NCBI GenBank assembly: GCA_950097015.1
Contig: CATNEN010000001.1
Location: 4,030,001 to 4,094,000, forward strand
Direction: 5' to 3'
DNA: 64,000 nucleotides
DNA from: Macrostomum hystrix
Lineage: Eukaryota > Animalia > Platyhelminthes
Shown here: piece by piece, positions 17,989-40,908 of the stretch
Layout of the letters: each line of letters starts with the position of its first letter
How positions within the stretch are numbered: position 1 is the first letter of the stretch
Notes under the pieces: model-generated
Database searches by the model: none
Told to the model about the DNA's origin: nothing
What the model saw: the letters and a program-made list of their open reading frames with translations, nothing else
Made by a program: the position numbers and the translations under genes

Positions 17989-19039
17989 TGTCGTAGGTCT
18001 CTTTACTTATATCTTACAGCTGCCACCAAGTTGTCGTAGGTCTCTTTACTAATATCTTACAGCTGCCACTAAGTTGTCGTAGGCTCTCTCCTCTTTGGGT
18101 TTAAATACCTCAGATACTCTTTTATTTTATATTAACAATTGCTTATTTCACACCTTGACTTAATCCTTGAAATAATTCTTAGTTTCCTTTGTCTATGACT
18201 TAGTTATTCTTCATAGGCTAGCTATGTACCTCTTATTGCATATGCATAAATTATTAAGAAAGTATTATTTAAGGATAGTAGACTCAGCGTTTATTTAGAA
18301 CGGATTTAGAGAAAGATAAAGGGGGTGAGACAATTAGGTAGCTCTGGCGTAGCTCAACAGAAGTTACAGGTACAGTTTGGAAATTTAGCAATCTACCATA
18401 GATATAAAGCTTACTTAGATTCTAGAAAATTCTAGAAGGAAAACTTTAGGATTTACTTACTATTAATAGATGCAGCTATTTTTAAGATAAACGATTACAT
18501 ATTAACAGCTTAAATTGGCCAGATAGGCTGCTTTCCTTCCAAAATTGGTAGCGTTCTCACGAGTGTCCGAGCGGCAAGACACTTCTTCCTCTCCTCTACT
18601 TACTCACAACTGTCTGGCTCTCTGGTTTGTTCCCAGTCTTTCAAGGCTTCCAATGGACTGAAGTTGCCCAACTTTGCACACTGTGCTTTTCCACCAATCG
18701 GGATTTACCCTTCTGCTCTTTAGTTTTTACACTCCACTTATTTTTATGGCTATTCCCTTCTTTATTCTTTCGAATATTCCTGACTTGTGTATTATCACGG
18801 ACCTGCTTTTCTCCTCTGTAAAATAATTGAAAAACACTTTGAGATTTATTCTCCTTTATTGCACTCCGAACTGGGCACGGGGCACCGGTTGGTTTTCTAG
18901 GGCTAAATTGCGGCTATATTTATACAAAAATTGGGGGTGGATGACACGGTGTATTATAACAAAGAATAAAAATCGGGAAAAAGCATTTGGCGGGGATTCA
19001 ACTTTAGAAATATACGTGATAATATTAGGGCCTGCCTCA
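17989..19039 (-). mobile_element. solo LTR (family S) with 4-bp TSD TTAT
   Basis: TG...CA termini with TTAT on both sides; removal restores pPolB MYKLFYDR in frame. Homologous to 43413-44116 and 55690-56320. Confidence 0.9.
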
Positions 19040-19519
19040 TTATTTTACGACAGATTAAAGCCGACATTCGATAATCCTGTTCTCCGGCAAGAAGTTTCTC
19101 TCTGCGGTGGAGACACGGATTCGTTTTTCCTTTGTTTCAAAAACATTGACGTTCAAAGCAGCGTGATTCCTGAACTGATTCGCCAGAGGCTGCTGGACAC
19201 ATCGAACTTCCCGGTTGATCATGAACTGCGATCGGATGAGCTTAAGACAAAGGTGGGCTGCATAAAGGATGCGTCGGCTGGAAATCCCCACAATGAGTGG
19301 ATCCTGTTGAGACCGAAGCTGTACTCGATGAAGGCTGCCATTGGAGGCAAGAAAGCAGCAAAGGGAGTTCAGAAGAGTGTGATGCGGACTGAAATTTCCC
19401 ACGAAGACTACAGGCAGGCCTTTGCTAATCTCAAGGAGTTGATCATCTCTGTGCGTAGGATTGCTAGCCGGAGACACCGTCTCTTCACTCTGGAGCAAAA
19501 GAAACGTGGCGGCGCCGCG

Positions 19520-20771
19520 GCGCTGGTCCTCTCCACGCCATCAGATTGGATTTGGCCCAAGCAGGCGCCAATTCTACCGTCGCTGGAATCGGTGTCGAGG
19601 ACCATTCGCACATTCTCATCGTCAACGAATTCTGGGTAAGCTAACACTTCGGTAGACATCATCCGAGTTTTCAATGACTCAAATGCTTCGTCGTGCACTA
19701 CACTCCATTTTTCTTGGAAGTTTTGGATATTCTTCCGTGTAAGTTGAAACAATGGGTGGGCGACTTCGGCATAATTTTTTACAAAGCGACTATAGTAGTT
19801 GCACAGACCTAGGAGACTTCTTAGTTCCTTTACGTCTTTCGGCTTCGGCCAAGTCTTGATTGCCTCAATCTTGGACTCGTCAGTACGAATTCCTTCAGTG
19901 CTAATCACATGACCTAGATATTTTAGTTCTTGATGAAATAGATTGCACTTTTTCGGTCTCAGCTTAAGTCCTGCTGTAATCAACCGTTGGAAAACTTTCT
20001 TTAAATGTGCCAGATGTTCGGCAAAAGTTTTCGAGTAAGTGACAATATCGTCAATATAGGACATCGCAAATTTATGCTGTATACCCAACAATACTACGAG
20101 TAAATTCATTAATCGCTGAAAAGTGCCCGGAGCATTAGAAAGACCTTGGGCCATATCTTCATACTCGAATTGGCCCCTAGTTAAGGTAGAAAATGAGGTC
20201 ATAAAGTTGTGCTCTTCTTTTATAGGCACTTGCCAATATCCGGAATTTAAATCTAGGCTGCTAAAGTATTGACTACCTGATAGATAAGAGAAAGTTTGGT
20301 GAATATTAGGCAACGGATATGGCACATAATTGACACGTGAATTTAGCACTCGAAAATCGCTGACTATTCTAATTGTTCCATCTTTCTTAGGTACTATTAC
20401 TAAAGGTGTTGAATAGGTAGAATAGCACGGGCGAATTAAATTTTTGGCTAGCATATCGTCAAGCTGAGCATCCACTTGCTTTTGAAGGTGTGGTGGAATT
20501 CTTCTCGTAGGAATTCTCACCGGAGTCTCATCCTTCAGGGATATTTCGTGGGTGACCAAATGAGTCAATCCCATGTCAAGCTCATGCTGAGAAAATGCCT
20601 CTCTGTGCTCTTTGATTAGATCAATTACAGATTTTTTCTGCTCTTCAGACAGATTCGGTCCAAGACTGACCTCTTCTATCCAAGCATCTTTAACAGTCTG
20701 AGTCTGATTAACCTTCACTGTGGGCTCGGATTCAGCTTGTTTTGAACTCTCGAAATAGTCCAATTCCCTAG
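19520..20771 (-). pseudogene. Gypsy-A reverse transcriptase and start of RNase H (3'-truncated)
   Basis: VPKKDG, DFR.LN, LDLNSGYWQ, GLSNAPGTFQ, YIDD, LGLCNYY and LDTDSS. Joins in frame (KARE|LDY) to the segment at 40909 once the Polinton is removed. Confidence 0.93.
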
Positions 20772-21138
20772 AGTAGTAGGGGTTATGTGCACTCTGCCGC
20801 AGGATTTTCCGTGGAAAAGCCACGGGGCTCAGTGTGTAAACATAGGCGCCCATGTAAATGCATTGGTGGATTCTGCCGCAGGGAAAGCCGTGGCAGTTCC
20901 GGGGAGGCCCAGTCGGATTTGCTAAAAATAGAAACAAGGGAAGTGTACATTACTGACCCACTTTACAAAGCATGCCACAAGTATATTCACTGTTCACTGT
21001 TCGCTGCATTACGTTCCGCACAATAATTTTAATGCATAGAGACATGAAATTTCATATCGTGCGTTTCTATGGCTGGAGTAACCTTGGGGTTAGTGAGTGA
21101 AAATGCATTGATGTACTCTGCCGCAGGGAAAGCCGTGG
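20772..21138 (+). repeat. left TIR of Polinton-2
   Basis: Reverse complement of 40531-40908 with scattered substitutions and small indels. Confidence 0.95.
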
Positions 21139-21332
21139 GAGTTCCGGGGGGTGGGGAGGTCCGAGGCTGATTTGTAAAAAAATGTGGGTTAGTGGGAACT
21201 CGCGGACCATGTTTTACTATAGCTGTATGTTTGCGGCAATGGTTTAGTCTATATAAGTACCAAAAAATTGATTGATTCACGTGGAGCCGAAATTTTGTTT
21301 AAACGAGATAATTAATTCTGTTTAAGTTTGTC

Positions 21333-22100
21333 ATGGACATCTGCGAAGGATATATGCTGCAAATACAGGAATATGAAGGAGTGAAATTCATTGCTATCAG
21401 AAAATTTTACCGACATGGCAGCACTGCGAGTTTGAAACCTGGAGTCCCCGGTTTCAATTTGAACATCCGGCAATGGCAGAAGCTCAAGGAACTGAAGAGA
21501 TCGCTTGTCATGGCTGCCTTGGACAACCAGCCGAAAGTTGTACAACTTGGCTTTGATAAATTCATTGAGGTGAAGGACAGCATCATATGGCTAAAGCGAC
21601 TGCCCGAGGACTGCTGCGAAGAGTTTCTTAAGCGGAACACCGTGCCGCTGACACCACCGCTGTGGCGGAAGCTGTGGCAGTACGCGGATTGGATTGACGG
21701 GCAGCTATCGGCTCGACGTGAGATGTCAGATATGTACGAGCTGGGGCCAGGATCTTCCTCGGACAGCATCAAAGGCGAAGACGGTGCTGGTGACAACGCA
21801 GACGAAATCAAACCTGCACTGAAGATGGAAGATTCGGACGGTGCTACTGCTGCTGATGAAGCTGCAATGTCGTCCAATCTGCAAATTGATACGGAGTTCG
21901 CCACTTCAACGCCTTTGCCACTTTCAAAGGCTGTAGCTGGAGCCATTCCTCAGCAAGACACTGATCTACAGGAGGACCCAGTCTGGTACCAATTCCGACC
22001 TCAAGCGGCTGCAGCTGAGAATGCTAGGAAGCGCAAGCAGCCGTCGTTTGCTCTACGTAGATTGGATGCCATGAAGCTGCCCAAACTGCGCTTCGACTGA
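21333..22100 (+). CDS. PC4/p15-like (ssDNA-binding transcriptional coactivator) domain protein
   Basis: IQEYEGVKFIAIRKFY...LKPGVPGFNLNIRQWQKLKE resembles the PC4 core (DIRE.Y...E.KPG.KGISL..EQW..LK). Intact 255 aa; TATATAA at ~21250. Confidence 0.8.
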   Translation: MDICEGYMLQIQEYEGVKFIAIRKFYRHGSTASLKPGVPGFNLNIRQWQKLKELKRSLVMAALDNQPKVVQLGFDKFIEVKDSIIWLKRLPEDCCEEFLKRNTVPLTPPLWRKLWQYADWIDGQLSARREMSDMYELGPGSSSDSIKGEDGAGDNADEIKPALKMEDSDGATAADEAAMSSNLQIDTEFATSTPLPLSKAVAGAIPQQDTDLQEDPVWYQFRPQAAAAENARKRKQPSFALRRLDAMKLPKLRFD

Positions 22101-22212
22101 ATGCGGACCCTCGGACACTAAAAGCAACATTTTTATCCATACTTTTTTTTCAAATTTTTTGAAAAAATATGTGCTGCTTGTGCGTTTCCAACATCTTAAG
22201 AATAAATAAATT

Positions 22213-24662
22213 ATGAAAATGTTTGCCTCATTGTTTCTGAAAATGGAAAAAATTTACTTTAACCCGAATCAGCCAGCGAGTTATTGCAGTTCTTCAAAGC
22301 TTCAACATGAACTGAGAAAAAGAGATGATCACATCGGGGTTAAGGGGATTGAGCAATGGCTAAGTCAGCAGCCAGTGCATACTCTACATAAGCCGGCTAG
22401 AGTTCGATTTCAAAGGGCGCCAATAATAGTAAGAGCCATTGATGATCAGTGGGAGTTGGATCTGGTGGAAATGATTCCGTTTGCCAAATATAATCGCGGG
22501 CATAAATACATTCTTACATGTATAGATGTTTTATCTAAATTCGCTATGGCCAGAGCTCAGGGGCCAATTTCATAATACACTGCTAACGGTTATTTAGCAG
22601 CTGCTAAAGGCGGTTTGGTTTCACGAAGCAGATCTATGTCTGTGTCAATGTGTCAGAGCACTGAGCTTACTAGAGTACATAATGGTAGGCGAGGGATCAA
22701 CAGTGAAGCCCGCCCACTTCTTCCGAGCAATATTTGTCTATGGCCAAGACCACTTGTGCGGAGTCATGGAACCACTGGTAGGTCAGCAGTTAGCAGCTGC
22801 TAAGAAGCAACTGCTATTTAGCTGTTGCGGAAAATCGATTTCACGACGAACTGCTAAGTTGGACAGAAACCTTAGCAGCCGGTTAGTGCCATAGACAAAC
22901 TTAAAAGCGGTAGAGTAAGGAGCTCACATAAAGCTAGAAAGAGACAGAACGATTTTTGCCTGCCTCTGCTTGTCTCCACCAAATTTGTTCGCCTTTTGCG
23001 ATCGATTGAAAGCGGCTGTGGCAGGAGGCAAATTCGCACCGAGTACTGGCGGTATAAGCCAATCAAGGCAAGGAAAGATGCTGTCACCAAGTAAAACTGC
23101 TCCAGGGAATGGACGCCAATTGTCGACTTGAAAGGCTCGATAGAGATTGCTGTTGCGCAGAACCCTAGCGTCGCTGACAGGCCATGATGAGTTGCAGTAA
23201 AAAATGTATGATCAGGACCACACACGAGAAGAACGTTCAAGGAGTGCTGCCCTTTTCGGTCCACAAACAGGTTCTCGTCCACGACAGGTTTTTTAATGGG
23301 AATCAAAGTACCATCAGCGGCTCCGCACACAGACGGCATACCAGCAATGTCGTAGAATCGTTGTGCAAGGCCCTGGGGGTCAGGCCACCTGACCGTCTCA
23401 TGGAACAGCTCCGCGTTAATTGCATTGGCCACGCGTCTCACAACTCGACACACTGTTGACTCCGACGATCCGTGGGCGTCTCGGATCACGTGGTAGAAGC
23501 TGTTGGTCGCAAAAAACCGCAGGGCAGTCAAAGTCTGCTCACGTGAACTCAAGGCGCAGCTTCGGTTGGTATCGTGTTCCAATTGAGGACCAACCCGTTC
23601 CAGTAGCAACTCGACAGTTTCCGCATTCATTCGAAAGCGCTGGCGGAAATCAAGGTCCGCGTCTAAATTTACTGTCTCTAAATTCTCGTGGTCTTCGTTG
23701 GTTAAGTTGGTAGTCAACGAGGTTAAAGTCATCAAGAAAGTCCATCTTAGCCTGTTCCGAGGGATGCTCAAATTTAACCGCGAATTCCTAACCTCTTTAG
23801 CAGACTGCTACTTTCATGAAACCGAAAAACATTTCTGCTGCTAAATCGGGGGTTCATGCCATAGACACTTCACTGGTAACAGTGGTCTCTCCACTCTCTT
23901 CACCCTCCACAGAGCTTTAAAAGCGCAGCAGAAGTGCAATCAGCGTTTGAGAGCATGCTGAAGAGCTCAAAGCGGCAGCCACGCACCGTCCGCACGGATC
24001 AGGGAAAGGAGTTTCTTAACACAATATTTCGCCAGTTCTGCATAGACCGCGGGATTCTGGCGTTTCCAACAAACAGTGAGCACAAAGCTGCTGTAATAGA
24101 AAGATGGAATCGAACTTTAAAAAGCAAGATGTGGCGTTATTTTACTCACAACAGCACTCTACAATGGCTTGATGTGCTACCTAAACTGGTCAAGTCCTAT
24201 AACAATACATTCCACAGAAGCATCAAGACTACACCAATGAATGTTTGCAAAGAAAATGAGACTGACATCTGGATGAATCTTTACGATGGGAAAGCGATTG
24301 AGACAGTTAAGAAGCTGAGAAAACCGAAGTTCAGTGAAAACCAGTCTGTACGAATTTCAAATGCTCCCAGACTCTTCAGAAAGGGATACATGGCTAACTG
24401 GAGTGAAGAAGTGTATACTGTAGTGTCTAGAGCTCCAAAGCATTATCCGTATGTGTACCAGATTCGAGACATGAAGGGTGAAGATATTCGAGGCCTCTTT
24501 CATGAGCATGAGCTGCAAGCTGTTCCGGACTCCCAGCGGCTGTATGTGATTGAAAAGATTCTAAAGACTGAGAAGCGGAAGGGAAAGATTCGCTATCTCG
24601 TAAAGTGGGCCGACTACAACTCGACTGGCTGGGTGGATGAGAAGGACTTAAGAAAGGTATAG
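22213..24662 (+). pseudogene. Polinton retroviral-like integrase with C-terminal chromodomain, interrupted
   Basis: WELDLVEM, YILTCIDVLSKF, RTDQGKEF, KAAVIERWNRTLK and YVIEKIL...YLVKW..Y...W. Split by the insertion at 22558-23909. Confidence 0.93.
22558..23909 (-). mobile_element. PIF/Harbinger transposon remnant with HARBI1-like transposase (ORF 22872-23771)
   Basis: FRQRFRM, LRFFAT.S, GAADGTLIPI and DRKGQHSLNV motifs; frameshifted near 23180. One end starts GGGCCAATTTCATA; flanked by CAGAGCT direct repeats. Confidence 0.85.
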
Positions 24663-24699
24663 ACATCTAAGTTATTCGATATTTTAATATTTTGATTTT

Positions 24700-25511
24700 G
24701 AGGAATCAGCAGCATCGTAATAAACAGTGAGCATGCAGAAGGTTCTTCTAGTGACTTTAATTTTCGCCTGTCTGCACCTATATACTTGGATCGAAATGTG
24801 GACTATGAGGCAGGTCTGGCTGAAATCCATCTGCCTACTGCATGGCTCAATGTTGACGAGCCTTACTGCTTCACAGTCTCAGATGTAAGAGAGCATGAGG
24901 CCCTGGTTCTTCAACCCGGACGCTTTGACAGAGTGGAGGAGCTGGTGGAGCGGTTGAACGAGCTACTAGTCAACTCTGAGTCACTGTTCTTTGATGCCAT
25001 GAGCGATAGAGAGTCTGAGATGGAGGCTGATGAATCGGGCCTGATGGCTCGCAGCAATAAAGATTTTGGGATAAAGTTTGAAATTCAGAATCAAAGAACA
25101 GTAATGCACAACAATACCGCACGAGCAGAGTTGTATCTTCCTCCAAGCAAAATCCTGCAGTGGTTGGGATTTGGAAACCAGTCAATCAAAATCCCACCTG
25201 GGCGCCACGTGTCAAGCTGTTGCATCGGCTGTCCGCCCACCAACCTGGTCAATGTGCGCTGCAGCCTTGTTGAGTCAACAAGCTGCAACTGGGACTCCCT
25301 GCTGCGAACTGTGAACATCAGTTCTAATGCTGAATGGGGCTGCTACTTCAGCAAAGTGTTTAAGAAAACACTGTTCTTCCCAATCCAGAAAACAAATTTT
25401 CTACACAGCATTCGAATTCAACTGCGGGATAAATTTGGTCACCCTCTGACTGCTCAGAGCTGCAGTCCTGTTTTGCTCACGATTCAGATCCGGGAGAAAC
25501 TTATTCGATGA
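24700..25511 (+). CDS. Polinton minor capsid protein (penton)
   Basis: SSDFNFRLSAPIYLD...YEAGLAEIHLP and C-terminal SLLRTV...SIRIQLRD.FG.P patterns, plus position before the hexon. True start unclear and possibly mutated. Confidence 0.8.
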
Positions 25512-25894
25512 ACTATCAGCAGCTGATCCGGCAGTACTCTGGAACTCGAAATGGAAGCGATAAATCTGCGCCCTATGGGTGCGGAAGTTTTCCAGGGATT
25601 ATGACATATCAACCTCCTCCAGCAACTTCACCAGCACATGCATCTCAGTTGGCCTCGGCTGGCAAAAGCGTTAGCAAAAGAAGACAGTTGAATGCTAAAG
25701 TTTCTAGTAAAAAGAGAATACAGAAGACACCTCGCCAAAATGGCAAGAAGGGGAAAAAATCAAGGAAACGGAAAAATGCAGGTAGAAAGAAACCTAAGAA
25801 AGGAGAGAGCAAAGCAAAGGGCAAAACGGTAAGCAAGAGGAAGCGAAAAGTCAGCAGGAAAACGGTGAAGCGCGTGCTGGACTCTTTGTCGTAG
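25508..25894 (+). CDS. small Lys/Arg-rich protein, putative DNA-condensing core protein
   Basis: Very basic C-terminal half; start overlaps the penton stop; lies between penton and hexon. Confidence 0.65.
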   Translation: MNYQQLIRQYSGTRNGSDKSAPYGCGSFPGIMTYQPPPATSPAHASQLASAGKSVSKRRQLNAKVSSKKRIQKTPRQNGKKGKKSRKRKNAGRKKPKKGESKAKGKTVSKRKRKVSRKTVKRVLDSLS

Positions 25895-25896
25895 AC

Positions 25897-27162
25897 ATGG
25901 CTTATGGATTCAACCCAAGGCTCGATTTGTTCAAGGCTCCTGCGCTGCAGACTGCCATTGACAAATCCTCCTATCTCGATATTCACCCCGTGAACTCAAT
26001 TGCTGCAAATGCACCCATCGAATTCGATTGCCACCTATCAGCTGACGAATACACCGATCTATTGAATTCTTTCCTGTACATTCGCTGCCGCCTAGTCCGA
26101 CTGGATGGGGGCTTGCTGAGGGAGAATGTTCTGAACGCTGAAGGAGAGCTGACAGAGCGCCGAGACAGTGATGTGCACCCTGAAAACTTCGTCCTGTCTA
26201 CGCTCTTCTCTGATGTCATTGTGAGCATTAACCAGCGAGTTGTGTCCGGGGGAGACCAACTCTATCCCTATCATGCCTATTTCAAAGCTCTCATGAGTTC
26301 CTCAGACGCCCAGCAGCTGAAGTTCTACCCCGCTGGATTCCTGCAACCTGACTCCGCTGCAGAGGCACACATGGAGAGCCACAGGCAGTCCCGCTGGGTG
26401 GAGTATGCCGGACCGTTGCTCAGCGACATCTTCCAGTGCCCCATGTTGCTGCTGAACAACCTACACCTGCACATCAAGTTGGTGCCCAGCGACGCTGCAT
26501 TTGCCATCAGAACCCCGGTCACAAACAACACAGCCTACCGCATGGAAATCTCCCACTGCATCCTGCATCTCTGCCGAGTCAAGGTGGCTTCTCACATCAG
26601 CCTAGCCCATGAGCAGGGACTGATCAACCAGAATGCGCTCTATCCTATGGAGCGAGCCGAAATTCAGAACTTTATTCTGCCCCAGGGAATCCAGTCGAAG
26701 AACATTGAAGGCTTTACCCACGGAAAACTCCCAAAGTTCATCATGCTGGCTTTCGTGAGCCACCGAGCCTACAACGGGAATCATCACACCAGCCCCTTCG
26801 AGTTCCAGAGCTTCAACCTCAGCCAGCTAGCTCTAAAGAAAGGCGGGGAAACCATGTGCCACGGTGCATTCACACCCGAAAACAACTCATTTGTGCGAGA
26901 GTACTTGCACTACCTGAAAAGCTGCCAGTCTGCCAGCCCCACCAACTCGGTCCCTTGGATCCCCTATCAGATCTTCTCCAACGACAACACCGTGTTAATG
27001 TTCGACCTCACACCCGAGGGAGCAGCCCTGTGGTACGGACAGAAAGAGGGAAACCTGCGGCTGGAGATTCGGTTCCGACAGGCGCTTGACGAGGCCGTGA
27101 CTCTGATTGTCATGTGCCTGTATGACTCTCTGATTGAAGTCACCAAGCATAGGGAAATTTAG
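25897..27162 (+). CDS. Polinton major capsid protein (double jelly-roll hexon)
   Basis: LDLF..P..QT.I...Y.DIHP...PIEF...Y.DL.NSFLY N-terminus, YPY.AY, LP.FIM.AFV...A.NG...SPF.F and G.LRLE.RF; intact 421 aa. Confidence 0.93.
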   Translation: MAYGFNPRLDLFKAPALQTAIDKSSYLDIHPVNSIAANAPIEFDCHLSADEYTDLLNSFLYIRCRLVRLDGGLLRENVLNAEGELTERRDSDVHPENFVLSTLFSDVIVSINQRVVSGGDQLYPYHAYFKALMSSSDAQQLKFYPAGFLQPDSAAEAHMESHRQSRWVEYAGPLLSDIFQCPMLLLNNLHLHIKLVPSDAAFAIRTPVTNNTAYRMEISHCILHLCRVKVASHISLAHEQGLINQNALYPMERAEIQNFILPQGIQSKNIEGFTHGKLPKFIMLAFVSHRAYNGNHHTSPFEFQSFNLSQLALKKGGETMCHGAFTPENNSFVREYLHYLKSCQSASPTNSVPWIPYQIFSNDNTVLMFDLTPEGAALWYGQKEGNLRLEIRFRQALDEAVTLIVMCLYDSLIEVTKHREI

Positions 27163-27182
27163 CTAGATTTTTCATAATAATT

Positions 27183-27698
27183 ATGAAAACTTTTCAGATG
27201 TTTAAACTTGCCAGAAGCTTTTTGCCCCTTAGAAACGTTTTTATAGTGTCTCTAAATTTGAATAGTTCTAATAATGCTGAGTTAGAATTTCATTTGCGGA
27301 GTTACCTGAATGAGAAAACATATAAGAGCAAATTTATTTTCCTTTTGTTGCATCACAGCTCCTTGTCAGGTCACTGGGTGGTTTGCGACGTCAATTACGG
27401 GAATTCTGTGGAGCTTTTTAATTCCCTTGGCTGGGACTCGAAAACTTTAATGATTATTCATGATTTACTGCAAGTAGCCCTGGGTTCCCCGCTTCGTTTG
27501 AGCAGCAATGTGGATCGAATTCAAAGCTGTGACTCTGTCAAATGCGGTCTCTTCTGTCTTTATTTTACTTATCAGAAGTTTCAATTCAAACGGTCATTTA
27601 AGTGGGTTCTGCGACAACTGCATGCAAAGGAAAAGAGCCACCTGAATGACAGAATGCTTCGGCAGTTCGAAGCCAGCCTAAGAAAGAGAAAGTTATGA
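27183..27698 (+). CDS. adenain-like cysteine protease
   Basis: GHWV, FNSLG and IQ...S.KCG.FCLYF catalytic motifs. Confidence 0.88.
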   Translation: MKTFQMFKLARSFLPLRNVFIVSLNLNSSNNAELEFHLRSYLNEKTYKSKFIFLLLHHSSLSGHWVVCDVNYGNSVELFNSLGWDSKTLMIIHDLLQVALGSPLRLSSNVDRIQSCDSVKCGLFCLYFTYQKFQFKRSFKWVLRQLHAKEKSHLNDRMLRQFEASLRKRKL

Positions 27699-28384
27699 AA
27701 GTCAGCTCTACAAATTGGCTAAAGCCGACTAAGGAAACCAGTGCGAATAGAACATGCTATGATGCCCGCCTGCGGCAGGGAAGCTGCATGATTGTCAGCG
27801 GGCCAACCAATGCTGGCAAGACAACCTTCGTGAAGCAGCTAATTCAGTACAGGGATGTCATGTTTGATACGATGCCTGAGAGAGTCCTGTGGTACTATGT
27901 GGTTTCGCAGACAGTGCACTCTGAGCTGAGCAGCCTGGGAGTGCACCTGCAGCAGGGATTCCCCAGCAACATTGAGGCGGCTCTAAGACCCAATGACCTG
28001 ATTGTTTTTGATGATTTGATTGAAGAGACTTCTAGCTCTGCTGCGATGCGAAATGTATTCACCAGAATCGCTCATCACTTACCCTGCTTTCTGGTAATGC
28101 TGACCCAGAATGTATTTTTTAAAGGAAAAGAGTTGCGAACGATGAGTCTGAATGCGATGTACTTTGTCATCATGAAGAACCCCAGAGACCAGCTGCAGAT
28201 TGCAGCACTGGGCAGGCAGTGCTTTGCAGAGAAGCCCGGCTTTCTGCTGTCTGTGTTTAAGCATGTGACCGCTCAAGGCAGGGGAGCTTACCTGCTTCTG
28301 GATTTCCACCCATCCACTCCCGATGAGCTGCGAGTGCGAGCGCGGATCCTGCCCAACCAGCGCCCCCACCTGGTTTATACCTAA
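27695..28384 (+). CDS. FtsK/A32-like DNA packaging ATPase
   Basis: Walker A GPTNAGKT, Walker B LIVFDD, TQN, SLNA.Y and KNPRD..QI..LGRQ. Confidence 0.93.
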   Translation: MKVSSTNWLKPTKETSANRTCYDARLRQGSCMIVSGPTNAGKTTFVKQLIQYRDVMFDTMPERVLWYYVVSQTVHSELSSLGVHLQQGFPSNIEAALRPNDLIVFDDLIEETSSSAAMRNVFTRIAHHLPCFLVMLTQNVFFKGKELRTMSLNAMYFVIMKNPRDQLQIAALGRQCFAEKPGFLLSVFKHVTAQGRGAYLLLDFHPSTPDELRVRARILPNQRPHLVYT

Positions 28385-28423
28385 GAATGGCAAATACGCT
28401 GTTTTCCATATCTATACTCAACA

Positions 28424-28771
28424 ATGGACACGCTTTGTTTTCATGAAAGCATCTTTGCAATTCTTGCATCAGCGAAATACACTGTCAGCTTCAAGCGCTT
28501 GCTAATCAAGCACGGTCCGAAAGAAGTGCGAAAATTCCTTGTTGAAGCCTGTTACAACCTATTGGAAAACAACCTGACTTTCTCTCTTATTGAAAAGGCT
28601 GAGCTGGCAAAGTCCAAGCAGATTATTCGAAAAATCCCAGAACAAAGAAAAGAAGCTGACTTGCTAAATCATAATTTCATAAAAATTCTCCCCACTCTGC
28701 TGAAGCTTGTGCATAGAAGAAAGAAGGAAAATGAACAAGTTCTCCGAGATGGTTCTGATTCCCAAGTCTGA
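28424..28771 (+). CDS. conserved small Polinton protein
   Basis: E.CYNLL.....L...K..L.K.K..IRKI pattern recalled from small ORFs next to Polinton ATPases. Confidence 0.55.
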   Translation: MDTLCFHESIFAILASAKYTVSFKRLLIKHGPKEVRKFLVEACYNLLENNLTFSLIEKAELAKSKQIIRKIPEQRKEADLLNHNFIKILPTLLKLVHRRKKENEQVLRDGSDSQV

Positions 28772-28931
28772 GTATGACATGCTAATGAGTAATGTGAAGC
28801 CCAATGAGTCTGCAGAAGACATTGCGGTAAAGCAGGCACAGATTAAATGTGATGATATATTGTATGCCGACGATTGCCCAGACAATGTAAAGACAGCCAT
28901 GTACCAGAACGCTATGAAAAGTTTTTCATAG
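28731..28931 (+). pseudogene. N-terminal fragment of a conserved Polinton protein
   Basis: MVLIP..EY...IL....PD..K...YQ pattern; stops early. Confidence 0.4.
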
Positions 28932-29281
28932 TTTTTCATCCGAGCTACTCGGACTCAGTCAGGGCTGCCCGTCGCTTCGTGGCTATGCTACATCGCAGAG
29001 TGCCTGCTCAACTGCTGCCTCATCAGTTCATTTGTGTACGAATTAAAACTATTACTGCACATGGAAAGATTGACTTGCCCAACCCCCAATGCTTGACAAG
29101 CCTCCGTGATGTGCTACCGAATGCTAGATATGAGCCAGAGTCCTTTTCTGCTTTGATTTGCAAACTGGACTTCTGTAAGTGCCAGCTTTTTCACAATGGC
29201 TCATTCGTTCTCAGTGGTGCGAAGACAGTGAACATGCTGATTGCCGATTTTTCCAAGCTTCACCGTTTTCTGTGCCAGTAA
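28874..29281 (+). CDS. TATA-binding-protein (TBP)-like domain, single repeat, probably 5'-truncated
   Basis: ARYEPESFSALI...QLFHNGSFVLSGAKT matches the TBP repeat signature YEPE.F.GLI....LIF..GK.V.TGAK. Confidence 0.8.
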   Translation: MPRQCKDSHVPERYEKFFIVFHPSYSDSVRAARRFVAMLHRRVPAQLLPHQFICVRIKTITAHGKIDLPNPQCLTSLRDVLPNARYEPESFSALICKLDFCKCQLFHNGSFVLSGAKTVNMLIADFSKLHRFLCQ

Positions 29282-29661
29282 TAAACTTATGTTTCAACAG
29301 TTAAATAAGAAGACGACGACGGCTGAACAAAGTGTAACGTTTTTCATGCAATCTGCCACTTGTTTAAAAAGTGTGCATTTTAACCAATTTTATTTTGAAA
29401 ATCTGACTTCGATTGGTCTTTCTTGAGCATTTTGCTATGCTTGAGCATAGCAAATTTAAACAGATCACCACTAAAAGCATGGGAAAAGCACACCTACCAC
29501 CACCACCCAGATTATGTACTCCTAAAACAAATAAAACGAACACGAGCAAACAGAAATAAGAAAAGTGAGTATTATTTAGATAATTAATGATAATTAATGG
29601 ATAATGGATAAAAACGAGTAGCAAAATTAGCAAAAAAAGAAAATAACAACTGTCGCTTCAT

Positions 29662-32600
29662 TCATTCTGCATTGCTAAAATAAGGTGCGTTGAAACAAAA
29701 TAGAAAAGCCTGACTAATGTGATGCAACTGATTCCAACATGACTTTGGCAAGTTAGTATTGAAATAGTCTAATAGACTTTTCGGTCTACCCCTGATCGTT
29801 AGCTGAAAGTGGCCGAACGGAAGACTTGTGTTCGAGCCAGTCCACGCTCGCTTGTCCTCCCAGATACTGAGAGCGAGCTTGCGTTGCTCAATGGTGAAAA
29901 CGCGATGTTTCTCACTTCCAATTCGACGAATAGTGAGCGACAGCTTTGAAGCGTCCCTGAAAATCTTTACGTAGTCATCGTGGGAGACTTCATTCTTCAG
30001 CACGCTTCGTTGGATACCTTTTGCTTTTGCTTTGCTAGCCGTCGAGCTTTCGGCGAGGAAAGAATAGAGCTTGGGCCTCAGCAGCACCCACTCAATCTGC
30101 CGCACTCCACCAGCTTCATCTTTAATGCAGCCTAGCCTGGCCTTCAGTTGATTCGAGAAGAGTGGGTGATTAGATAAAAAATTGGATGTGTCCAAGAGGC
30201 CTTCGGCATGCAGGATTGGCAGCACTTCTCTCTGCAAGTTAAGATTATCTAAGCTCAAAAACAGCGAGTCTGTATCGCCACCACAAACACGAACTCTCGC
30301 TCCATCACGGAATTCTAGCATGGGTTTTATTCTGTCGTAGTAAAGTTGATACATGATGATCTTGGAGCGATCTAGAACACACTGCCCCATGAAAAGTGGG
30401 CGATCAAGAGTTACTTCACGCTTTTGAAGCTCGAAGATGCTGAGTGACGGTGTAATGATGGTGAATGATGTGACATTTGGTTGCGAAGAAACAGTCTTGA
30501 CCTTTTTCTTGTCATTGCACACTCTGATGTCTCGCGGCTTGCGTACGTTCTCCATTGTTTTGCCAAACGGAATTATTTTTCAGCTTGTAGAAATCCTTCT
30601 CGAAATCATTTTTCGCCATAGAGCGCTTCTCACTATTCATCTTAATGTAGTCCGCGAAGACAGGTTCTTGCCTGAATTCGATCATCCTTTGGAGCTTGTG
30701 CAACTTCATCCCGTGCGATAGATAGAATCGGAGGGCTGAAGAGTGCAGTACATAGGAAAATTTGTTGTGGCACGTGAGCATTAACTTTTGTACTCCACGG
30801 TAGTGCGCAGCGGTAGGATCTACAGTGGTGTTCGCGTCGGGCTGCTGATGACGATGATAATTGTCGTGCTGAAGCAGTGCCCATAATTCTCGCATGTACT
30901 GTGGAAATTCATCGAAATCCGGACACCTTTTCTCTGGGGCGAATGGAAGATCCTCCGTTGCCGAGTGGATTTCGGCAGGGTAGAGCAAATCCGCTTTGAC
31001 AAGGTAGCCGATTGGAGCATCATCGTCCAGGGCGAGAAAGCGGCGCTCAGACCATGAGTACAGCTCCTCTTGACTGAGCCAGCGAAAGCCACCAACAGGT
31101 AGGGGCATTGTGAGCGCATGACCGTAAAGGTTATTAGCATCAACAGCTAGTAAACTCCTACCTGCTGTTTCATCATCATCATCATCATCATCATCACTGC
31201 TTTCGCTCTGGGCATGATGTACATTGACAAAAGACATTCCGCCCCGAATTCCTTTCTCAAACATTTTGTACATCTCGAGATCGGTTAGCAGTTCAATCTT
31301 GACTTGAGAAGACTTTAGCGCTGAAGCAAATGAGAGGCCTGGGGTTGACACAAAATGCACCGGATCTAGCTTGTCTTCCTGCAAACTCAGCCTTCGAAAC
31401 CCTTCAAAGATATCTGCAAGTTGCCTGATGTCCAGCTCCAAGTAGCATTGCATGTAATCGCGCAATGTTGTGGATTCGAACTCAGTCCATGCCTTCTGCG
31501 CATGCCGATACTCCGCCTCGGTACAGTGGCTGTTGGTGAGTCGATTAAAAAAACTGTCTACTTTTGGTAGTTGGCGATCATCGAGCACATTCAAGTTTGA
31601 GAGATAATCATAAGGGAAAACTCCCTTACTGAGCAGTACATGCCTTGAAAGATTTGGATACTTTGATCGCATCGCATTAGTGATGGGACAGTTGTCCTCC
31701 GGCAAGTTGTCCTCCGGCTCGAAAGTTCTTGATAAGCTGAGAAAGACTACTGTGTAGGAATTGCAGTGAATCGATGAACTGCATCGTGAAGAACAGGGGC
31801 TTCTTCTTACCATCTTTTTCGTACTCATCAATTAGGAATTCCACTCTCATTTAGAGATAAGATTCAGCAGTTTGTGGTATAACACACTTTCCAACCTGGC
31901 ATGTCGCCTAGGGCGCTCGAAAAAATCAGGTGCAGGTCATAACCACGAAGATTATGCATAACGATGGGCAAGAAGCGCCGCCGCAGTTTAGCAAGCTTGT
32001 TGCATGAAGCACAGGCAGCTCCTCTAAAATCTCCGCTCAAATGATCATGATCGCAGTGTTTGTCAGATGATGAGGTAAAAGCTGCACTGCAATAGTGGCA
32101 CTGAACGGATTCAGCAAAGTTGCGCCTATCTTCTTCCATGCTCCTGTCTGCTTTTTGGTGGCTGAACTCCGTATTCCACCCATAGATTCCACGAGCAAGT
32201 TGTTCGAGTGAGGCCAAAAACTGCTTCACGACAGAATTCGGATTGGGACCGCTGCAGAGGAAAACATCCTCACTCGGCCTCCGAATGTCGCTGCTCATAC
32301 CCTCTCTTGGAATAACAATGTAGCCAGCAGCTACAGGCAGATGCTCAGTTAACTTGGTGATACCAACTGCTCTGTCAGGCTCTATTAGTTCACATGGGGT
32401 GTTCAGAGCTTCAAAATCTGCGTAGACAACAAATGGGGGACTGATAGTCTTTTCCCAAGCCATGAATTGCATTGTGTTGCTATTTGCATCAGGCATGCGC
32501 TCCATGATGCTGGGTTTCAGCTGAGGATTGCAGCTGTCTCGATGCTGCTCTAACTCCTCCTGGGATCGAAACGGAGAAATGCACTTCTCACACCATTTGC

Positions 32601-33510
32601 GATTCCTCAGACCTTTTTTGCTGTTCAGGAGCCGGTACAGGTTCGAAACTGCACACCAGTGTCCAGTCCCACAATTCTCAACATCATTATCATCATCATT
32701 AGCATAATCAGAGCATGAGTTGCGAAGCAAGAGTAGAGGAATAACCTTGCGAGAGGCACAAAGCCCAGGAAGTGGCTGGCGAATGACATAGGCCTCATCA
32801 TGCTCCCAGGTAAAAACTGTGAAACAGATTTCGGGATTCTTTTCTTCTATAACTTCTAAATCGGAAATTGCGATTGGTAAACTGATGCCGCTCAGATCGA
32901 TTTCACCCAGCCATCTGCTGTAAGTTGTTAGTCGATGACAGGACTTCATCACACCAGGATCACTGCTGTGCAGGTAAGCAAGACAGGCAAATAGAAAGCA
33001 ATAATTTCCATTGCTCGGTGGGTTCATGATGGCCTTCTTAACTACTAGCCGATTGGGCACAGTAAAATTAGCACATCTTCCTCGATAGTAGCGAATGCGA
33101 TCAGTGAGGGCAGAGCTCAGATCAAAATAGTTGATTTGTTCAACTATCCAACCACTCCCATTTGCATTGTAGGTTGGATCTTGCGTTCCAGCTCAGAAAA
33201 CTGCTGCAGCCACCACAATTCAAAGTCTCTAAGATCAGTAAGAAGCTCGAGACTGCATGCGAACCACTTATCCTCCGCATTAACTACCATTGCTTCTTTG
33301 ATTCTCACCATTCTAATGTTGAACTTAAGCTGCGCTCGAACAGAATTGTTCTCGGATGAATCTCATCTCATCTCAACAGCCTGTAGCACTGCGAACTTAG
33401 TAGATGTTAAAAAGTGAAATGGATCGAGACCTCTTGAGGCTGGAGTGAAGCGTCTTACCTGCAGTATGTCATCATGCGCACTGGCCTGAACAGCCGAGCT
33501 GAATTGAATG
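29662..33510 (-). pseudogene. pPolB of Polinton-2 with Endonuclease VII-like insert, frameshifted
   Basis: ORFs 31864-33060, 30512-31831 and 29662-30555: VYADFE, DHDHLSG..GAAC..CN, HNLRGYD, KGVFPYD, DANNLYG, KLKNNS, GDTDS and RPKLYS. The N-terminal part to ~33510 has stops. Confidence 0.94.
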
Positions 33511-33609
33511 CCTGTGTGAATCGATCATGTTTTTGTTTAATATTCGTGTTTCATTGGACAGTTATAAATAAGTTATTTCCTCTAATTCTATCTCCTCATA
33601 GTGTCAATC

Positions 33610-33757
33610 AACGAAATCGGTGAATCAGGAATCAGTGAATCAGTGATTCGATAATTCGGATTAAGTGAATCGGTGAATCAGGAATCGGTGAATCAGGAAT
33701 AGGTGAATCAAGAATCGGTGAACCGGGAATCAGTGAACCAGGAATCAGTGAATCAGC
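33610..33757. repeat. (GAATCGGT/GAATCAG)n minisatellite upstream of pPolB
   Basis: Repeated GAATC-based 7-8-bp units read directly. Confidence 0.85.
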
Positions 33758-34753
33758 GGATGGGTTTGTTATGACTACTTAGCTTGTACTTTTAGAGGGA
33801 TAAGTCTACTTTGCTGGCTATGCTGAATTCATTTGAACAAATATTGCATGAACTCACCGGTTGGCTCGAGCTCGAAAGTGAAATTGGTGGACTCATGCGA
33901 CAGATCACTTGCTGCTGCTGCTGATGTGGTGGCTGGTGAAGTGTCTCTCGACATTATCTCGGTTCTTTTTACGAGTATTACACAGTTGGAACCATTTTAG
34001 ATCAGATGGGGGAATTTGCTGAAACGCATATTTTGTGATGATTTTATTTGGAAAAGCTAATATCAGTAACATAATTTGTGCATATACGAGTACTAAACAT
34101 TCATATTATCGAAAGTTGCTAATCGGGTCTGGTCGTTACATACTAAAATTTCGGGTCCAAAACTTTTATAGTGTGCATACATTTGTTCTTTCTAAATCAA
34201 TAAATCTAAATTAAATATCTCAAAGCCACGAACTTTTCCTAAATGTAGCGCTTCAGTATTCTTTCAGCATTATTAACTGATACAAAATAGGTATCAGTTT
34301 CTCTTTTTATTAAAAATATGCGATGCGAAAACATTGGAAACAGAAGTTAATTAGAGACGGAGATTATAACAAATAACGCAGAGCCAACCAGAATCAATCC
34401 CAATCCTCATCCTTGCATTAAACACATGACACCCTAGCACAGGTTGATCAATCAGCACTACATAGATGCATAAACTTTAACTTTATAGACATTAGATCGT
34501 TAGATGTTAAAAATTATGAAATTTGAAATTCGCGTTTGAAAATAATTTATGGGTCTTGACTTAATTTACAAAAAATATTTCCAGATACACAATTATTAAC
34601 TCTTACAATCACCATGAGATGCCATCAATCTGCGCTCATAAAGCAATACGTTAATAAAAAATAAGATCCTCCAATCCTCCTAGGTAAAAAGCGCCGTTAG
34701 TATCAGTAAAATCACTCCATTTTCTTCTACTTATTTCAAACTTGGTACTAAAA

Positions 34754-35680: not shown

Positions 35681-36011
35681 AGCTTACATGGACTCAACAT
35701 TTATTCAAAGTGACTCTTGTGAAGCTCGCACCGGCGGGACACAATGCCTGTGTGGTATGAGTCAGACCAGGCCTACGGGCTAAGGTCTGCGATGCCTCAC
35801 ACCTGCAGTCGTTTTTTGAGCAGGCTTGGCAGGAAGGAGACCTGTGCCCTCGGGTGCAGGAATCCTCTCCACGTTGTCCCGTCAGCTGACCCATGGGTAC
35901 ACGTCCCGCGAGTGTTCAAGGCTGACCCTAGGGCAGCTGGACAGAATGGGCAACAGCGCTGGACGACCCATCCAGGGCCTCTGGCCAAACTGGGTACCTC
36001 TAGCCCTGGCT

Positions 36012-36635
36012 GGAGGGAAAGGTGTCACCCTTTGACCTTAACAGGGTATGCGGCCAGTCCGCAGCGTTCGTGCACCTGTGCGTGATCAGGTACCTCTGGC
36101 TACGGCTCGGAGGGAAAGGTGTCACCCTTTGACCTTAACAGGGTATGCGGCCAGTCCGCAGCGTTCGTGCACCTGTGCGTGATGAGGTACCTTTGGCTAC
36201 GGCCCTGAGGGAAGGGTGTCACCCTTTGACCTTAACAGGGTATGCGGCCAGTCCGCAGCTTTCGTGCATCTGTGCGTGATCAGGTACCTCTGGCTACGGC
36301 TCGGAGGGAAAGGTGTCACCCTTTGACCTTAACAGGGTATGCGGCCAGTCCGCAGCGTTCGTGCACCTGTGCCTGATCAGGTACCTCTGGCTACGGCTCT
36401 GAGGGAAGGGTGTCACCCTTTGACCTTAACAGGGTATGCGGCCAGTCCGCAGCGTTCGTGCACCTGTGCGTGATCAGGTACCTCTGGCTACGGCTCTGAG
36501 GGAAGGGTGTCACCCTTTGACCTTAACAGGGTATGCGGCCAGTCCGCAGCTTTCGTGCACCTGTGCGTGATCAGGTACCTCTGGCTACGGCTCGGAGGGA
36601 AAGGTGTCACCCTTTGACCCTAACAGGGTACGCAG
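36012..36635 (+). repeat. 97-bp tandem monomers in the LINE 5' region (~6.4 copies)
   Basis: GGTGTCACCC recurs at 36021, 36118, 36215, 36312, 36409, 36506 and 36603. Confidence 0.95.
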
Positions 36636-36819: not shown

Positions 36820-38375
36820 GCCCAATCTTATAAAGAAATCGAAACCGGGAATCCCCCGGCTGCTCCGGCCGCTACCAACAGCGCCAACGCCGCCCCATCG
36901 GAGGCTACTGGACCCGCTGCCGCCCTGTCTGACGGGAGACCTGCCCCCCGGACCTATAGGCATCCGGTCCCAGGAAGCCCGTCACGGCCGAAACCAGCGC
37001 CGCAACGAGCGGCGTCGGCGTCAGCGCGAAAGGGAGGCCGCGGTTCGGCAATCCGCGGAGGTGGTGCCTCAAGTGGGCGAAGGTGCGGTTGGGCCGAAAG
37101 GAGCCACCGCCACCTCAGCCCCTCGGGAAACTACCTCCGCTGGGTCGCCACCCGCTGAGCCCTCCAGCAACACAAACACCGGAAACGTGGCTGGGCCATC
37201 CGGAGCCGCCACACATGCAACGATGGCCAGCGAGGCCCCGGCCAGCCAACCATCTACCAAGGCCAAGGAGTTCTACGCCTCCAAGGCCAGTGCCATGCTC
37301 CAACCCGCGGTCATCGTTTTTGAGGAAGAGAAAGACCTCACGGCCGAGCAGCTCGACAGTGCCTGGCGCATCATCGACGCTGCGCTCATTGACCAGCTCC
37401 TGGCATGCCGCCCGGTGAGCGTGGTCAAATCGGCCAAAACGGAGCCGTCCGAGTTGCATTTTCATCTGGTGCAACTCGGAGGAAAGCAGCCGAGCTCTAC
37501 GCGAGCTTCTGCCACAGCTAAAGTGGCCTAAGAAGCTCGGCAAGCTCACCTTCGCTAGCGAAGGCCAACGCCTTAAGACCGAGCGCTTCCGCGTTTGGAT
37601 CCCGAATGGCAGTGCCATCAAATCTGGGGATCAGCTTAGGCAGATTCTGCTGAAGCTGCACCCCGACCTTGAGGCCAACGGGCTCCTTCACCATGCCTCC
37701 TCCCGCAAGGAGACGGGGTTCACGGTGATCCTGGGGCTCTCGGATGCGTGGACCAAGCGCCTGCCGCCAAAGTCCATCATTCACCTCGGTCTAACTCAGC
37801 TGACCATCCTCCGCTGCGAGGAGCGGAAAGCTGGGGAAGCCAAAAAAGCCAAAGCTCCTGAGCCCGGATCCGGGGCGCAAGCTCCTCTGGCGAAGAAGCA
37901 GAGGCAAACGGTGGATCCCCACACCGGTAAAGCAGCTCGCGCTGCCGAATCCGGACCTCGCGACCACAGGCCTGCCAGGTCCACCCGGAGATCTGGGCTG
38001 GTCCAGCGTGCGCTGGAACAAGCCAGGACCCTCAGGGCGCACCTCGAGCGGGTCCACAAACCGAACGCTCCACCGAAGCAGCTAGTGGGGCAGGAGCGAC
38101 GAGGAGAGGCGCCGACTGACTCGTTTGATGCTAGCAACCACCAGGCGGATCGCGCCATCCACGTTGACCTGACCGACGAGGCGAGCCTGGGCAGCATCGG
38201 CGTCACGACGCAAAGGGACGGCGAGGGAGACACTCATGCTGGGCATATGTCCGCTGAGGGCTCCTCAGCCACCCTGACCGCCAGGGGCGCCGAGATTCCC
38301 ATGGAGCTATGCGAGCCTTCCATTTCCGAAAAGGAAGAGGAGGAATTGCTACGCGACTCCCCTGCGCGGCCATGA
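36820..38375 (+). pseudogene. LINE ORF1-like region, frameshifted
   Basis: Arg-rich and low-complexity ORFs (36533, 37725) whose stop overlaps the ORF2 ATG at 38372. Confidence 0.6.
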
Positions 38376-40470
38376 TCAGCAGTCCAGGAATTAGCGGCCT
38401 GCAGATTAATCTGCAACACAGCGTCGCAGCTTCGGCTAACCTGATGCGTCAAGCCGAGCTCGACAAGCCGGGTCTCATCCTAGTCCAGGAGCCGTCTCCA
38501 AAGGTAAGCCCCAAAACGTGCCTTCTGGGTATCAACGCCCACCATACCCACTGGGGCAGCACAGGGACAAACCAGAGAGGCGAAGACCTCCTGTCCTATG
38601 TTACCTCTACGACCCTGGAGTTCTGTAACTCCGGGTCTACGCCTACCTTCGACAATGGTCGCTGGTCAGAGGTGATTGACGCCACGCTCGCTTCACCCAA
38701 GCTCTTTCAGAGTATCGGGGAGTGGCGCGTTCTTCCGGAGCCATCCCTCTCTGACCATAAGTTCATTCACTTTCGTGTGGCGAGCGCTCGCAGCCATAAC
38801 CACATCACGTGGAGACGGAACGCCAGAAATACTGATTCGGAAGCCTTCAGGCATGCCTTGGAGGCAACCCATCGGTCTTCGGGCCAACCACCCACTATTT
38901 CGACGTGCCGAGAGGCGGACGAGTGCGCGACTGTTTTAACAGTCCGCTAACCGCCGCCTTCGAGGCTGCCTGTCCCCTAAAAGCCTACAAAGGGAAGACA
39001 TTTGCGCCGTGGTGGAATCCTCAGCTCGGCGAACTCCGTCGCAGAGCGAAGAAATTACACAGAAATTAGACCACACTGAGGGAGGCCAGATGCTGGCTGC
39101 CTCTATCATCACGGAGGACCGCATCGTTAAAGCGGCCACCTCCTTTAAGCCTTTCAAGGCTCCAGGGCCTGATGGCATCGTACCTGCCTTTCTTAGAGAG
39201 GCGGTTAAACGCCCAGGTTTCCTGCGCTCTCTTTGCAGCCTCTATCGAGCCTGCATCACGCTCGGGTACGTCCCGCAGGCATGGACCGAGGCGAAGGTGA
39301 TTTTTATCCCGAAGCCAGGCCGCCCGGACTACCAGTCTATTAAATCCTTCAGACCAATCAGCCTAACCACCTTCCTGGTCAAGCTGATGGAGAGACTAGT
39401 GCTGTGGCGCCTTCTCTCAGTGGAACTGAAGAACGCGCCGCTCAGCGACAACTAGCATGCTTTTCGGGCGGCTCGCTCCACCGAAAGCGCGCTGCACGTT
39501 CTGGTCGACAAATTGGAGAAAGCTGTGCTTGGCACCGGCTTCGCCTTAAGTGTCTTCCTGGACATTGATGGTGCCTTTGACAACGTCCTCTTCGAAGCGT
39601 TCCGCAAAGCCCTTTACGAGAGGCACACTCACTCGTCCCTCACCAGATGGATCATGTATATGATCAGTCATCGCACGGTCACTGCCAACCTGCTGAGCCA
39701 CCAACGGACGGTCCCCGTCCGCAAAGGGAGCCCGCAGGGAGGGGTCCTCTCTCCTATTCTCTGGAACATGGTCATTGACGAGCTCCTCCGAGACGATCAT
39801 CCTGACCCAATCCTGAAGGTGGGGTATGCGGACGATGTCACTGCTGTGGCGTCTGGCCCATCCCCTGACACTCTCAGGGACCTCCTTCAGAATTTCATCC
39901 ACTCTGCTGAACAATGGGCGGGTCGCTGTGGTCTGAAGCTCTCCGAGACCAAGACTGCAGTGATCATGTTCACCAGCAGAAACAAGCGGCAGATACAGCC
40001 GCTTAGGCTTTACGGTAAGGAAATTTCCTTCTGTAAGCAAACCAAATGCCTAGGGATCACCTTGGACCATAGGCTGAACTGGTCTCCCCATGTTCAAACC
40101 AAAACCAAGAGGGCCCTCGCGATCCTCGCGCAGCTGCGGAGGGCCGTTGGCACCACCTGGGGGCTCACCCCCAAGCGCCTCTGGTGGATCTATACTGCAA
40201 TGGTCAGGCCAGCTGTCTCGTACGGCAGCTTGATCTGGGCCAGTGCCCTGCAGATGAAGACCTGCCTGGAGGCACTTAGGAAAACGCAAGGGCGCGCTTG
40301 TCGCATGACCATGAGTGCCCCACCGTCTGCTCCTTACGACGGCCTCAATGCCTTCCTCGACGCTCCCCCGCTGGACATTTTTGTCCGCAGGGAAGCCGCC
40401 AAAACAGCGCGTCGGCTCATTGATGCCGGCGTCCGCTTCACGCCGCAAAGAGCAATGGCAAAGCGCAAAC
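38372..40470 (+). pseudogene. LINE ORF2 (APE endonuclease and RT), with deletions and stops
   Basis: Motifs in ORFs 38309, 39009 and 39513. Confidence 0.9.
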
Positions 40471-40530
40471 AACAAATTTGTAGCTTTTTTATTAAAAAGC
40501 CATATTTTCTTTCTGACCTCCATCGTATTT

Positions 40531-40908
40531 CCATGGCTTTCCCTGCGGCAGAGTACATCAATGCATTTACATAGGCTCCTATGTTCACTCACTAACCCCA
40601 AGGTTACTCCAGCCATAGAAAAGCACGATATGAAATTTCAGGTCTCTATGCATTTCAAATATTTGTGCGGAACGTAATGCAGTGAACAGTGAATATACTT
40701 CTGGCATGCTTTGTAAAAGTGGGTCAGTAATGTACACTACCCTTGTTTCTATTTTTAGCAAATCCGACTGGGCCTCCCCGGAACTGCCACGGCTTTCCCT
40801 GCGGCAGAATCCACCAATGTATTTACATAGGCTCCTATGTTTACACACTGAGCCCCGTGGCTTTTCCACGGAAAATCCTGCGGCAGAGTGCACATAACCC
40901 CTACTACT
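40531..40908 (-). repeat. right TIR of Polinton-2
   Basis: Inverted copy of 20772-21138 ending CTACTACT. Confidence 0.95.

Follow-up and report, generated by a model that had tools for sequence, protein, structure and literature searches.

For the TATA-box-binding protein (TBP), the contacts to TFIIB are glutamates of the C-lobe, and a change at position N.L5.1 in TBPL1 suggests that this protein reads a different promoter sequence (Ravarani et al., PMC7221094). A poxvirus TBP/TFIIB-like pair is reported (PMC12917281), and herpesvirus ORF24 is an experimentally tested TBP mimic (PMC12529657). Among midsize viruses related to Polintons, a TBP-like gene is also indicated for the MELD viruses with adintovirus-like PolB, by the label 'TBP' in the Figure 5 legend of Starrett et al. 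2021 (PMC8502044), a legend label without analysis; Macrostomum is not mentioned in the main text of that paper or in the one supplement searched. TBP is likewise absent from the main text of a 2026 PLV framework preprint. Apart from the MELD legend, a literature search that did not extend to figures, subscription papers, or supplements on bioRxiv found no paper analyzing a Polinton TBP.

Polintons (Mavericks) measure 13–25 kb, with terminal inverted repeats (TIRs) of 100–1500 bp and target site duplications (TSDs) of 5–8 bp (PMC10748475). The window, the whole stretch of 64,000 nucleotides of Macrostomum hystrix DNA analyzed here, contains an element at 20772–40908 whose size (20.1 kb, insertions included), TIRs, and TSDs fall within these ranges. 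TIR and TSD are present at both ends, and the TIR pair is 91% alike over 386 bases, each arm being about 370–390 bases long. The gene content also is that of a Polinton: PolB and integrase (both broken), packaging ATPase, and adenovirus-like protease. The features are as follows.

20766–20771: left TSD, 6 bases, the same as 40909–40914
20772–21138: left TIR, AGT repeats at its start, from the inverted-repeat comparison
21333–22100, plus strand: PC4-like gene (Pfam PC4, E 6.1e-6), with a TATA-like word at 21250
22213–24662, plus strand: retroviral-type integrase with chromodomain (Pfam rve and Chromo, both under curated cut-offs; frame map)
22872–23771, minus strand: inserted DDE_Tnp_4 transposase piece (Pfam E 1.4e-4, under cut-off)
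24732–25511, plus strand: candidate minor capsid gene, without library match
25508–25894, plus strand: small Lys/Arg-rich basic ORF, possibly a core protein judging by its sequence, without Pfam match
25897–27162, plus strand: candidate major capsid gene, judged by position, size, and resemblance
27183–27698, plus strand: adenovirus-like cysteine protease (Pfam Peptidase_C5, E 5.9e-4, 20.0 bits against a cut-off of 21.3)
27695–28384, plus strand: packaging ATPase (P-loop matches; 32% identity, E 7e-35, to the ATPase of metagenome locus L001, which itself matches Pox_A32)
28424–28771, plus strand: uncharacterized 115-aa ORF, without library match of weight
28731–28931, plus strand: uncharacterized ORF, 5' part only, truncated at the deletion junction
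28920–28941: deletion junction with filler, a 10-base word in tandem at 28920–28939
28942–29281, plus strand: what is left of a TBP-like gene that had two repeats (complete repeat 2, preceded by the last helix of repeat 1)
29280–29285, plus strand: AATAAA, a word like a poly(A) signal, overlapping the TBP stop codon
29662–33192, minus strand: protein-primed type B DNA polymerase, in three reading frames (frame map)
38309–40574, plus strand: inserted LINE-like retroelement pieces, endonuclease and reverse transcriptase (Pfam Exo_endo_phos_2 and RVT_1)
40531–40908: right TIR, pairing with the left TIR
40909–40914: right TSD, a copy of the left 6 bases

The major and minor capsid labels (25897–27162 and 24732–25511) are our assumption, from general resemblance plus position. 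Neither candidate found a match in the profile library, the major candidate had no PDB relative, and its single-sequence fold (pLDDT 28.5) gave no usable model. The transposase piece at 22872–23771 is presumably Harbinger-like. The element's polymerase is ~50% identical (tblastx) to a second polymerase in the window, which matches DNA_pol_B_2; its pieces lie on the opposite strand and converge toward the plus-strand block 21333–29281. This Polinton copy is decayed: the integrase ORF is split by the inserted DDE-transposase element, the polymerase occupies three frames, and the right arm carries the LINE insertion.

Several other observations concern the element and its surroundings. The PC4-like gene (21333–22100, plus strand) lies just inside the TIR, and the word at 21250 is the sole clear TATA-like word in the block; its product may assist transcription as a cofactor or bind single-stranded DNA during replication. 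The literature search found no study of a Polinton PC4. Both polymerases in the window contain an Endonuclease VII-like (HNH) segment in their N-terminal part (15616–16755 and 31867–33192). GAATC-rich short tandem repeats lie upstream of the element's polymerase (33600–33770), and the right arm holds a tandem array of ~96-base units (35993–36633) before the LINE-like insertion. The full Polinton is itself inserted in a minus-strand LTR retrotransposon, with reverse transcriptase on the left (19408–20853) and protease plus gag on the right (41111–42979). A second, diverged Polinton arm (~12000–19500), cut by this LTR element before the full Polinton inserted into the latter, comprises a broken polymerase and a PC4-like ORF (12084–12614, minus strand) related to the gene at 21333–22100; this incomplete arm contains no TBP piece. 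Farther along, an apparently intact LTR retrotransposon (46049–47032 and 47149–52325, both minus strand) encodes gag and a 1407-aa pol, the latter with a weak dCTP-deaminase/dUTPase-like match between protease and reverse transcriptase. A DnaJ-domain ORF follows it directly, and a 565-aa ORF at 56399–58096 (plus strand) has no Pfam match.

The preliminary description of this locus claimed a TBP repeat signature beginning at 28874, at the end of the co-directional virion genes and inside the TIRs, directly after a truncated Polinton ORF (28731–28931). The signature is borne out: the frame 28856–29278 matches Pfam TBP (PF00352) with E 1.4e-8 and 34.8 bits, above the curated cut-off of 22.9, along a single stretch, and also matches solved TBPs (best E 1.2e-12). 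So is its position. The TBP remnant is the last gene of the plus-strand block, which ends at 29281 and thus within 20772–40908, and the ORF directly upstream is short and stops at the junction. The proposed start has to be moved, because TBP-derived DNA begins only at 28942/28943; codons 1–23 of the listed ORF come from the upstream gene, read out of frame, and from junction filler. The description of a single TBP repeat holds insofar as there is one Pfam stretch, but the last helix of repeat 1 is also retained. Within the remnant, an open frame of 98 codons begins at an internal ATG (28985).

Intact forms of the gene are found elsewhere. A protein search returned five close relatives among 16 candidates, the named ones from Macrostomum lignano. 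Four of the five are stand-alone proteins of 190–202 aa with two Pfam TBP stretches, and the remaining one, a model of 110 aa, covers the first repeat only. The close relatives, known here from proteins alone, score 78–83 bits against the Pfam TBP cut-off of 22.9. Their frames are intact, and identity to the remnant is 62–73% across the family, 62–66% for the closest proteins, and 42% for a more distant one, P0068; each relative begins with its own Met ahead of repeat 1, and none starts like the upstream ORF. Thus P0001–P0004 have both repeats of the TBP saddle, whereas the window copy has one TBP stretch. Among the best-supported differences listed between sister contigs and the window in the TBP frame, 12 of 18 fall at third codon positions (p 0.004 versus one third), an excess that fits purifying selection on the family. 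Four scans of viral contigs, among them those with P0001 and with the packaging ATPase, returned no relative. Three Macrostomum gene models (P0057, P0005, and P0006) have TBP-like pieces cut short or fused to unrelated exons; P0005 carries the name TATA-box-binding protein, which could mislead annotation of the host TBP.

The preliminary description had called for alignment with sister copies, and comparison with public contigs identified a deletion as the cause of the single repeat. X5 contig 20 (12,377 bases, from a second study) contains 28746–28918 and then 28942–29059, in order, but with 1268 other letters between them where the window copy has 23. The net loss in the window copy is ~1.25 kb, although its own lineage may have lost a different length, given that upstream likeness to the X5 copy is only ~80%. 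In X1, X2, and X3, contigs join the window sequence at 28942–28944. These contig ends coincide with the onset of protein likeness to the relatives, all five of which align to the window only from 28943 onward. Short filler with a tandem word, as seen here, is a frequent trace of error-prone end joining. An X2 contig shows 5 differences from the window in 712 bases (99% alike) and diverges after 28924. Since the copy is decayed and yet 99% alike to a sister without the junction, the deletion appears to be young. From these alignments, the single repeat is what an internal deletion left of a gene with two repeats, namely its second half. The missing 1268 bases would comprise TBP repeat 1 and the remainder of the upstream ORF, and the window's remnant is likely no longer functional. 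Longer relatives of the truncated upstream ORF numbered none among 10 candidates, a result of little weight. A Macrostomum gene model, P0006, has an exonuclease-like domain in front of TBP, with a look-alike cluster from Preplasmiviricota; this domain was not found in the window, and the deletion described here may have removed it as well.

That a two-repeat Polinton TBP-like gene was cut by an internal deletion is, in our judgment, close to certain, and it was among the options first listed for this locus. The others fare poorly against the same evidence. A working half-TBP, translated from the ATG at 28985 and pairing with itself into a saddle, would account for the open 98-codon frame that ends at AATAAA, and single-repeat TBP proteins do exist in archaea (PMC3597702). 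However, this ATG encodes the internal helix 2 Met present in every full-length relative; protein searches found no relative with the second repeat alone (shorter lengths were not searched separately); and the copy is decayed and has a near-identical sister free of the junction, which makes the loss a young one. Both the relatives and the X5 contig place the repeat in a two-repeat setting, not in a stand-alone single-repeat gene. The homodimeric half-TBP is thereby largely refuted, and we consider it very improbable. Even less credit is due to a fusion gene in which the TBP repeat was joined to the upstream ORF until a frameshift broke it. The two frames do abut, with the tandem 10-base repeat at the joint, but the bridging X5 contig separates the parts by 1268 bases, and the relatives' own starts ahead of repeat 1 do not resemble the upstream ORF; this option too is rejected.

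A piece of host TBP/TRF pseudogene inserted in one copy, or an assembly error at the joint, deserves hardly more consideration. The element does have other insertions, and the sole contig spanning the junction comes from X1 (possibly the source sample) and extends only 30 letters beyond 28942, one letter less than the contig comparison requires. On the other hand, that X1 contig has 0 differences across the filler, the family is only ~24% identical to the human TBP core, and several diverged lineages have the gene. A private insertion of a host pseudogene, named at the outset as a finding that would overturn the claim, is itself refuted by the sister contig, which carries the TBP region. That a Polinton carries a TBP-like gene is upheld: the remnant lies in an element bounded by TIRs and TSDs, and the gene order in X5 is the same.

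The intact family protein is predicted to fold as a TBP saddle. The structure model of P0001 (pLDDT 89.8) superimposes on solved cellular TBPs with TM 0.78–0.83 at 22–27% identity, and on viral TBP models (BFVD) with TM up to 0.73, below the cellular scores.

Residues were audited on alignment A5. The TFIIB-contact glutamates C.L3.2 and C.L3.4 are kept in 5/5 family rows and in the window, as are both C-lobe Phe residues. All five rows also keep the N-lobe Asn. The same five rows agree in three changes: the N-lobe loop Phe is Pro, with Trp beside it (this column could be off by one, giving Trp); the Phe at N.L5.1 is Tyr; and the C-lobe Asn is Thr, a change also seen in three of the four short TBP-like proteins in A5. 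The canonical DNA-face set (four Phe, two Asn) is therefore incomplete, the family rows keeping two Phe, one Tyr, and one Asn. Apart from L5.1 and the TFIIB glutamates, the DNA-face landmarks are in part assumed positions. The Phe-to-Pro, Phe-to-Tyr, and Asn-to-Thr changes suggest an altered DNA-binding specificity of the intact protein, and with one N-lobe Phe and one Asn gone, TATA binding could be weak or absent.

These features suggest a role. The intact TBP-like protein would bind Polinton promoters with altered specificity and, once bound, would recruit host TFIIB by means of the retained glutamate pair and then host Pol II. Use of host TFIIB is proposed because the element contains neither a TFIIB gene nor an RNA polymerase gene. 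On balance, and with some reserve, we favor this role, in which the protein selects promoters for the Polinton and relies on TFIIB and Pol II of the host. For the reading as a whole, a deletion remnant in the window and an intact family protein that acts as a promoter factor using host TFIIB and Pol II, we estimate a probability of about 0.7.

A shared promoter box was sought upstream of the element's genes, by eye and by word count, and none was convincing. The best word, TAAGAA, occurs upstream of 6/9 genes, but it was found after trying two word sizes, and was equalled in 26/1000 shuffles and 22/1000 random window sets. Its enrichment is weak and its spacing scattered (−16 to −147), and it was rejected as a promoter motif. 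The virion genes from 24732 to 29281 abut or overlap (stop-start junctions), with no AATAAA between 25056 and 29280. Macrostomum lignano has operons and trans-splicing (PMC8629364), and the virion block may be one polycistronic transcript with a single promoter, resolved by spliced-leader trans-splicing. If the virion genes do share one transcript, a TBP-like factor would have few promoters to read.

The main rival keeps the same anatomy but gives the protein another role, as a decoy or repressor that soaks up host TFIIB or TBP regulators, or as a DNA bender in replication or packaging. The N-lobe DNA contacts are changed in 5/5 rows, all of which retain a basic N-lobe helix and the TFIIB glutamates; the element offers no clear promoter motif; and the TBP-like gene comes last among the virion genes. 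All three points could be read this way. Yet the C-lobe Phe pair, the N-lobe Asn, an aromatic residue at N.L5.1, and the whole saddle are kept, and the herpesvirus TBP mimics, with altered DNA contacts of their own, are late-promoter factors (PMC12529657). We therefore regard the decoy or bender role as unlikely, and prefer promoter selection. A more elaborate version of the promoter-selection reading can be put forward only tentatively: a private transcription switch of flatworm Polintons, made of a bare TBP with a respecified N-lobe, a non-TATA promoter, a handle for host TFIIB, and a PC4-like cofactor encoded by the element, such TBPs having been gained or rewired by animal Polintons in several separate lineages.

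How widely such genes are spread was surveyed by sequence searches. A search of cluster representatives gave 126 matches, which include many short (165–195 aa), divergent TBP-like proteins. A metagenome scan with six short TBP-like proteins yielded three loci among 75 candidate stretches, and in 3/3 the TBP-like gene adjoins a Pox_A32 ATPase gene or a PC4 gene. At L001 (203–1336 of a 1.3-kb metagenome contig) it lies directly downstream of a Polinton-type Pox_A32 packaging ATPase; at the near-identical L002 and L003 it follows a PC4 gene. A search of phage records gave only distant haloarchaeal virus TBPs (three records, 25–27%). Two trees, a quick one of 122 rows and a careful one of 38 rows, were limited to proteins of 150–300 aa and did not include a named animal TBP or TRF. 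In both, the Macrostomum-type family is one clade (support 99 in the quick tree and 100/100 in the careful tree) on a very long branch (0.97 in the 122-row tree, 2.81 in the 38-row tree). By feature, its likeness is equal to the TBP, TBP2-like, and TBPL1 clusters. The Macrostomum-type TBP-like family is a separate and very divergent lineage, new here, to which neither tree assigns an origin.

An element of 20 kb that lacks an RNA polymerase yet maintains a TBP of its own under selection suggests that it encodes its own promoter switch. The intact relatives are where the interest lies, since the locus in the window is probably a dead remnant; it also serves as a reminder that single-repeat TBP calls within repeats can be deletion products. 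The intact family represents a strongly rewired virus-borne TBP, and Macrostomum is a tractable laboratory animal in which to test it.

The intact relatives share with cellular TBP and its paralogues (PF00352; PDB 1cdw, 1ytb, and 1mp9) the saddle, the TFIIB glutamates, and the C-lobe Phe pair. They differ in being only 22–27% identical, in lacking the N-terminal extension, and in residing on a mobile element; the window copy, in addition, lacks repeat 1.

The TBPs of large DNA viruses, like the Polinton family, are virus-borne and divergent versions of the TBP fold. In those viruses, however, the TFIIB-contact positions have diverged and a viral TFIIB partner is frequent (PMC7221094), whereas the Polinton family retains both glutamates. 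The single repeat and short frame in the window recall the monopartite TBP-domain proteins of Euryarchaea, but the latter are conserved stand-alone genes (PMC3597702), and the window's frame arose by truncation of a gene with two repeats. Herpesvirus ORF24 offers a functional likeness, since this TBP mimic is proposed to bring host Pol II to the promoters of the virus. Yet ORF24 is a large, multidomain protein modeled as incompatible with TFIIB binding (PMC12529657), whereas the Polinton protein is a bare 190-aa saddle with its TFIIB surface in place.
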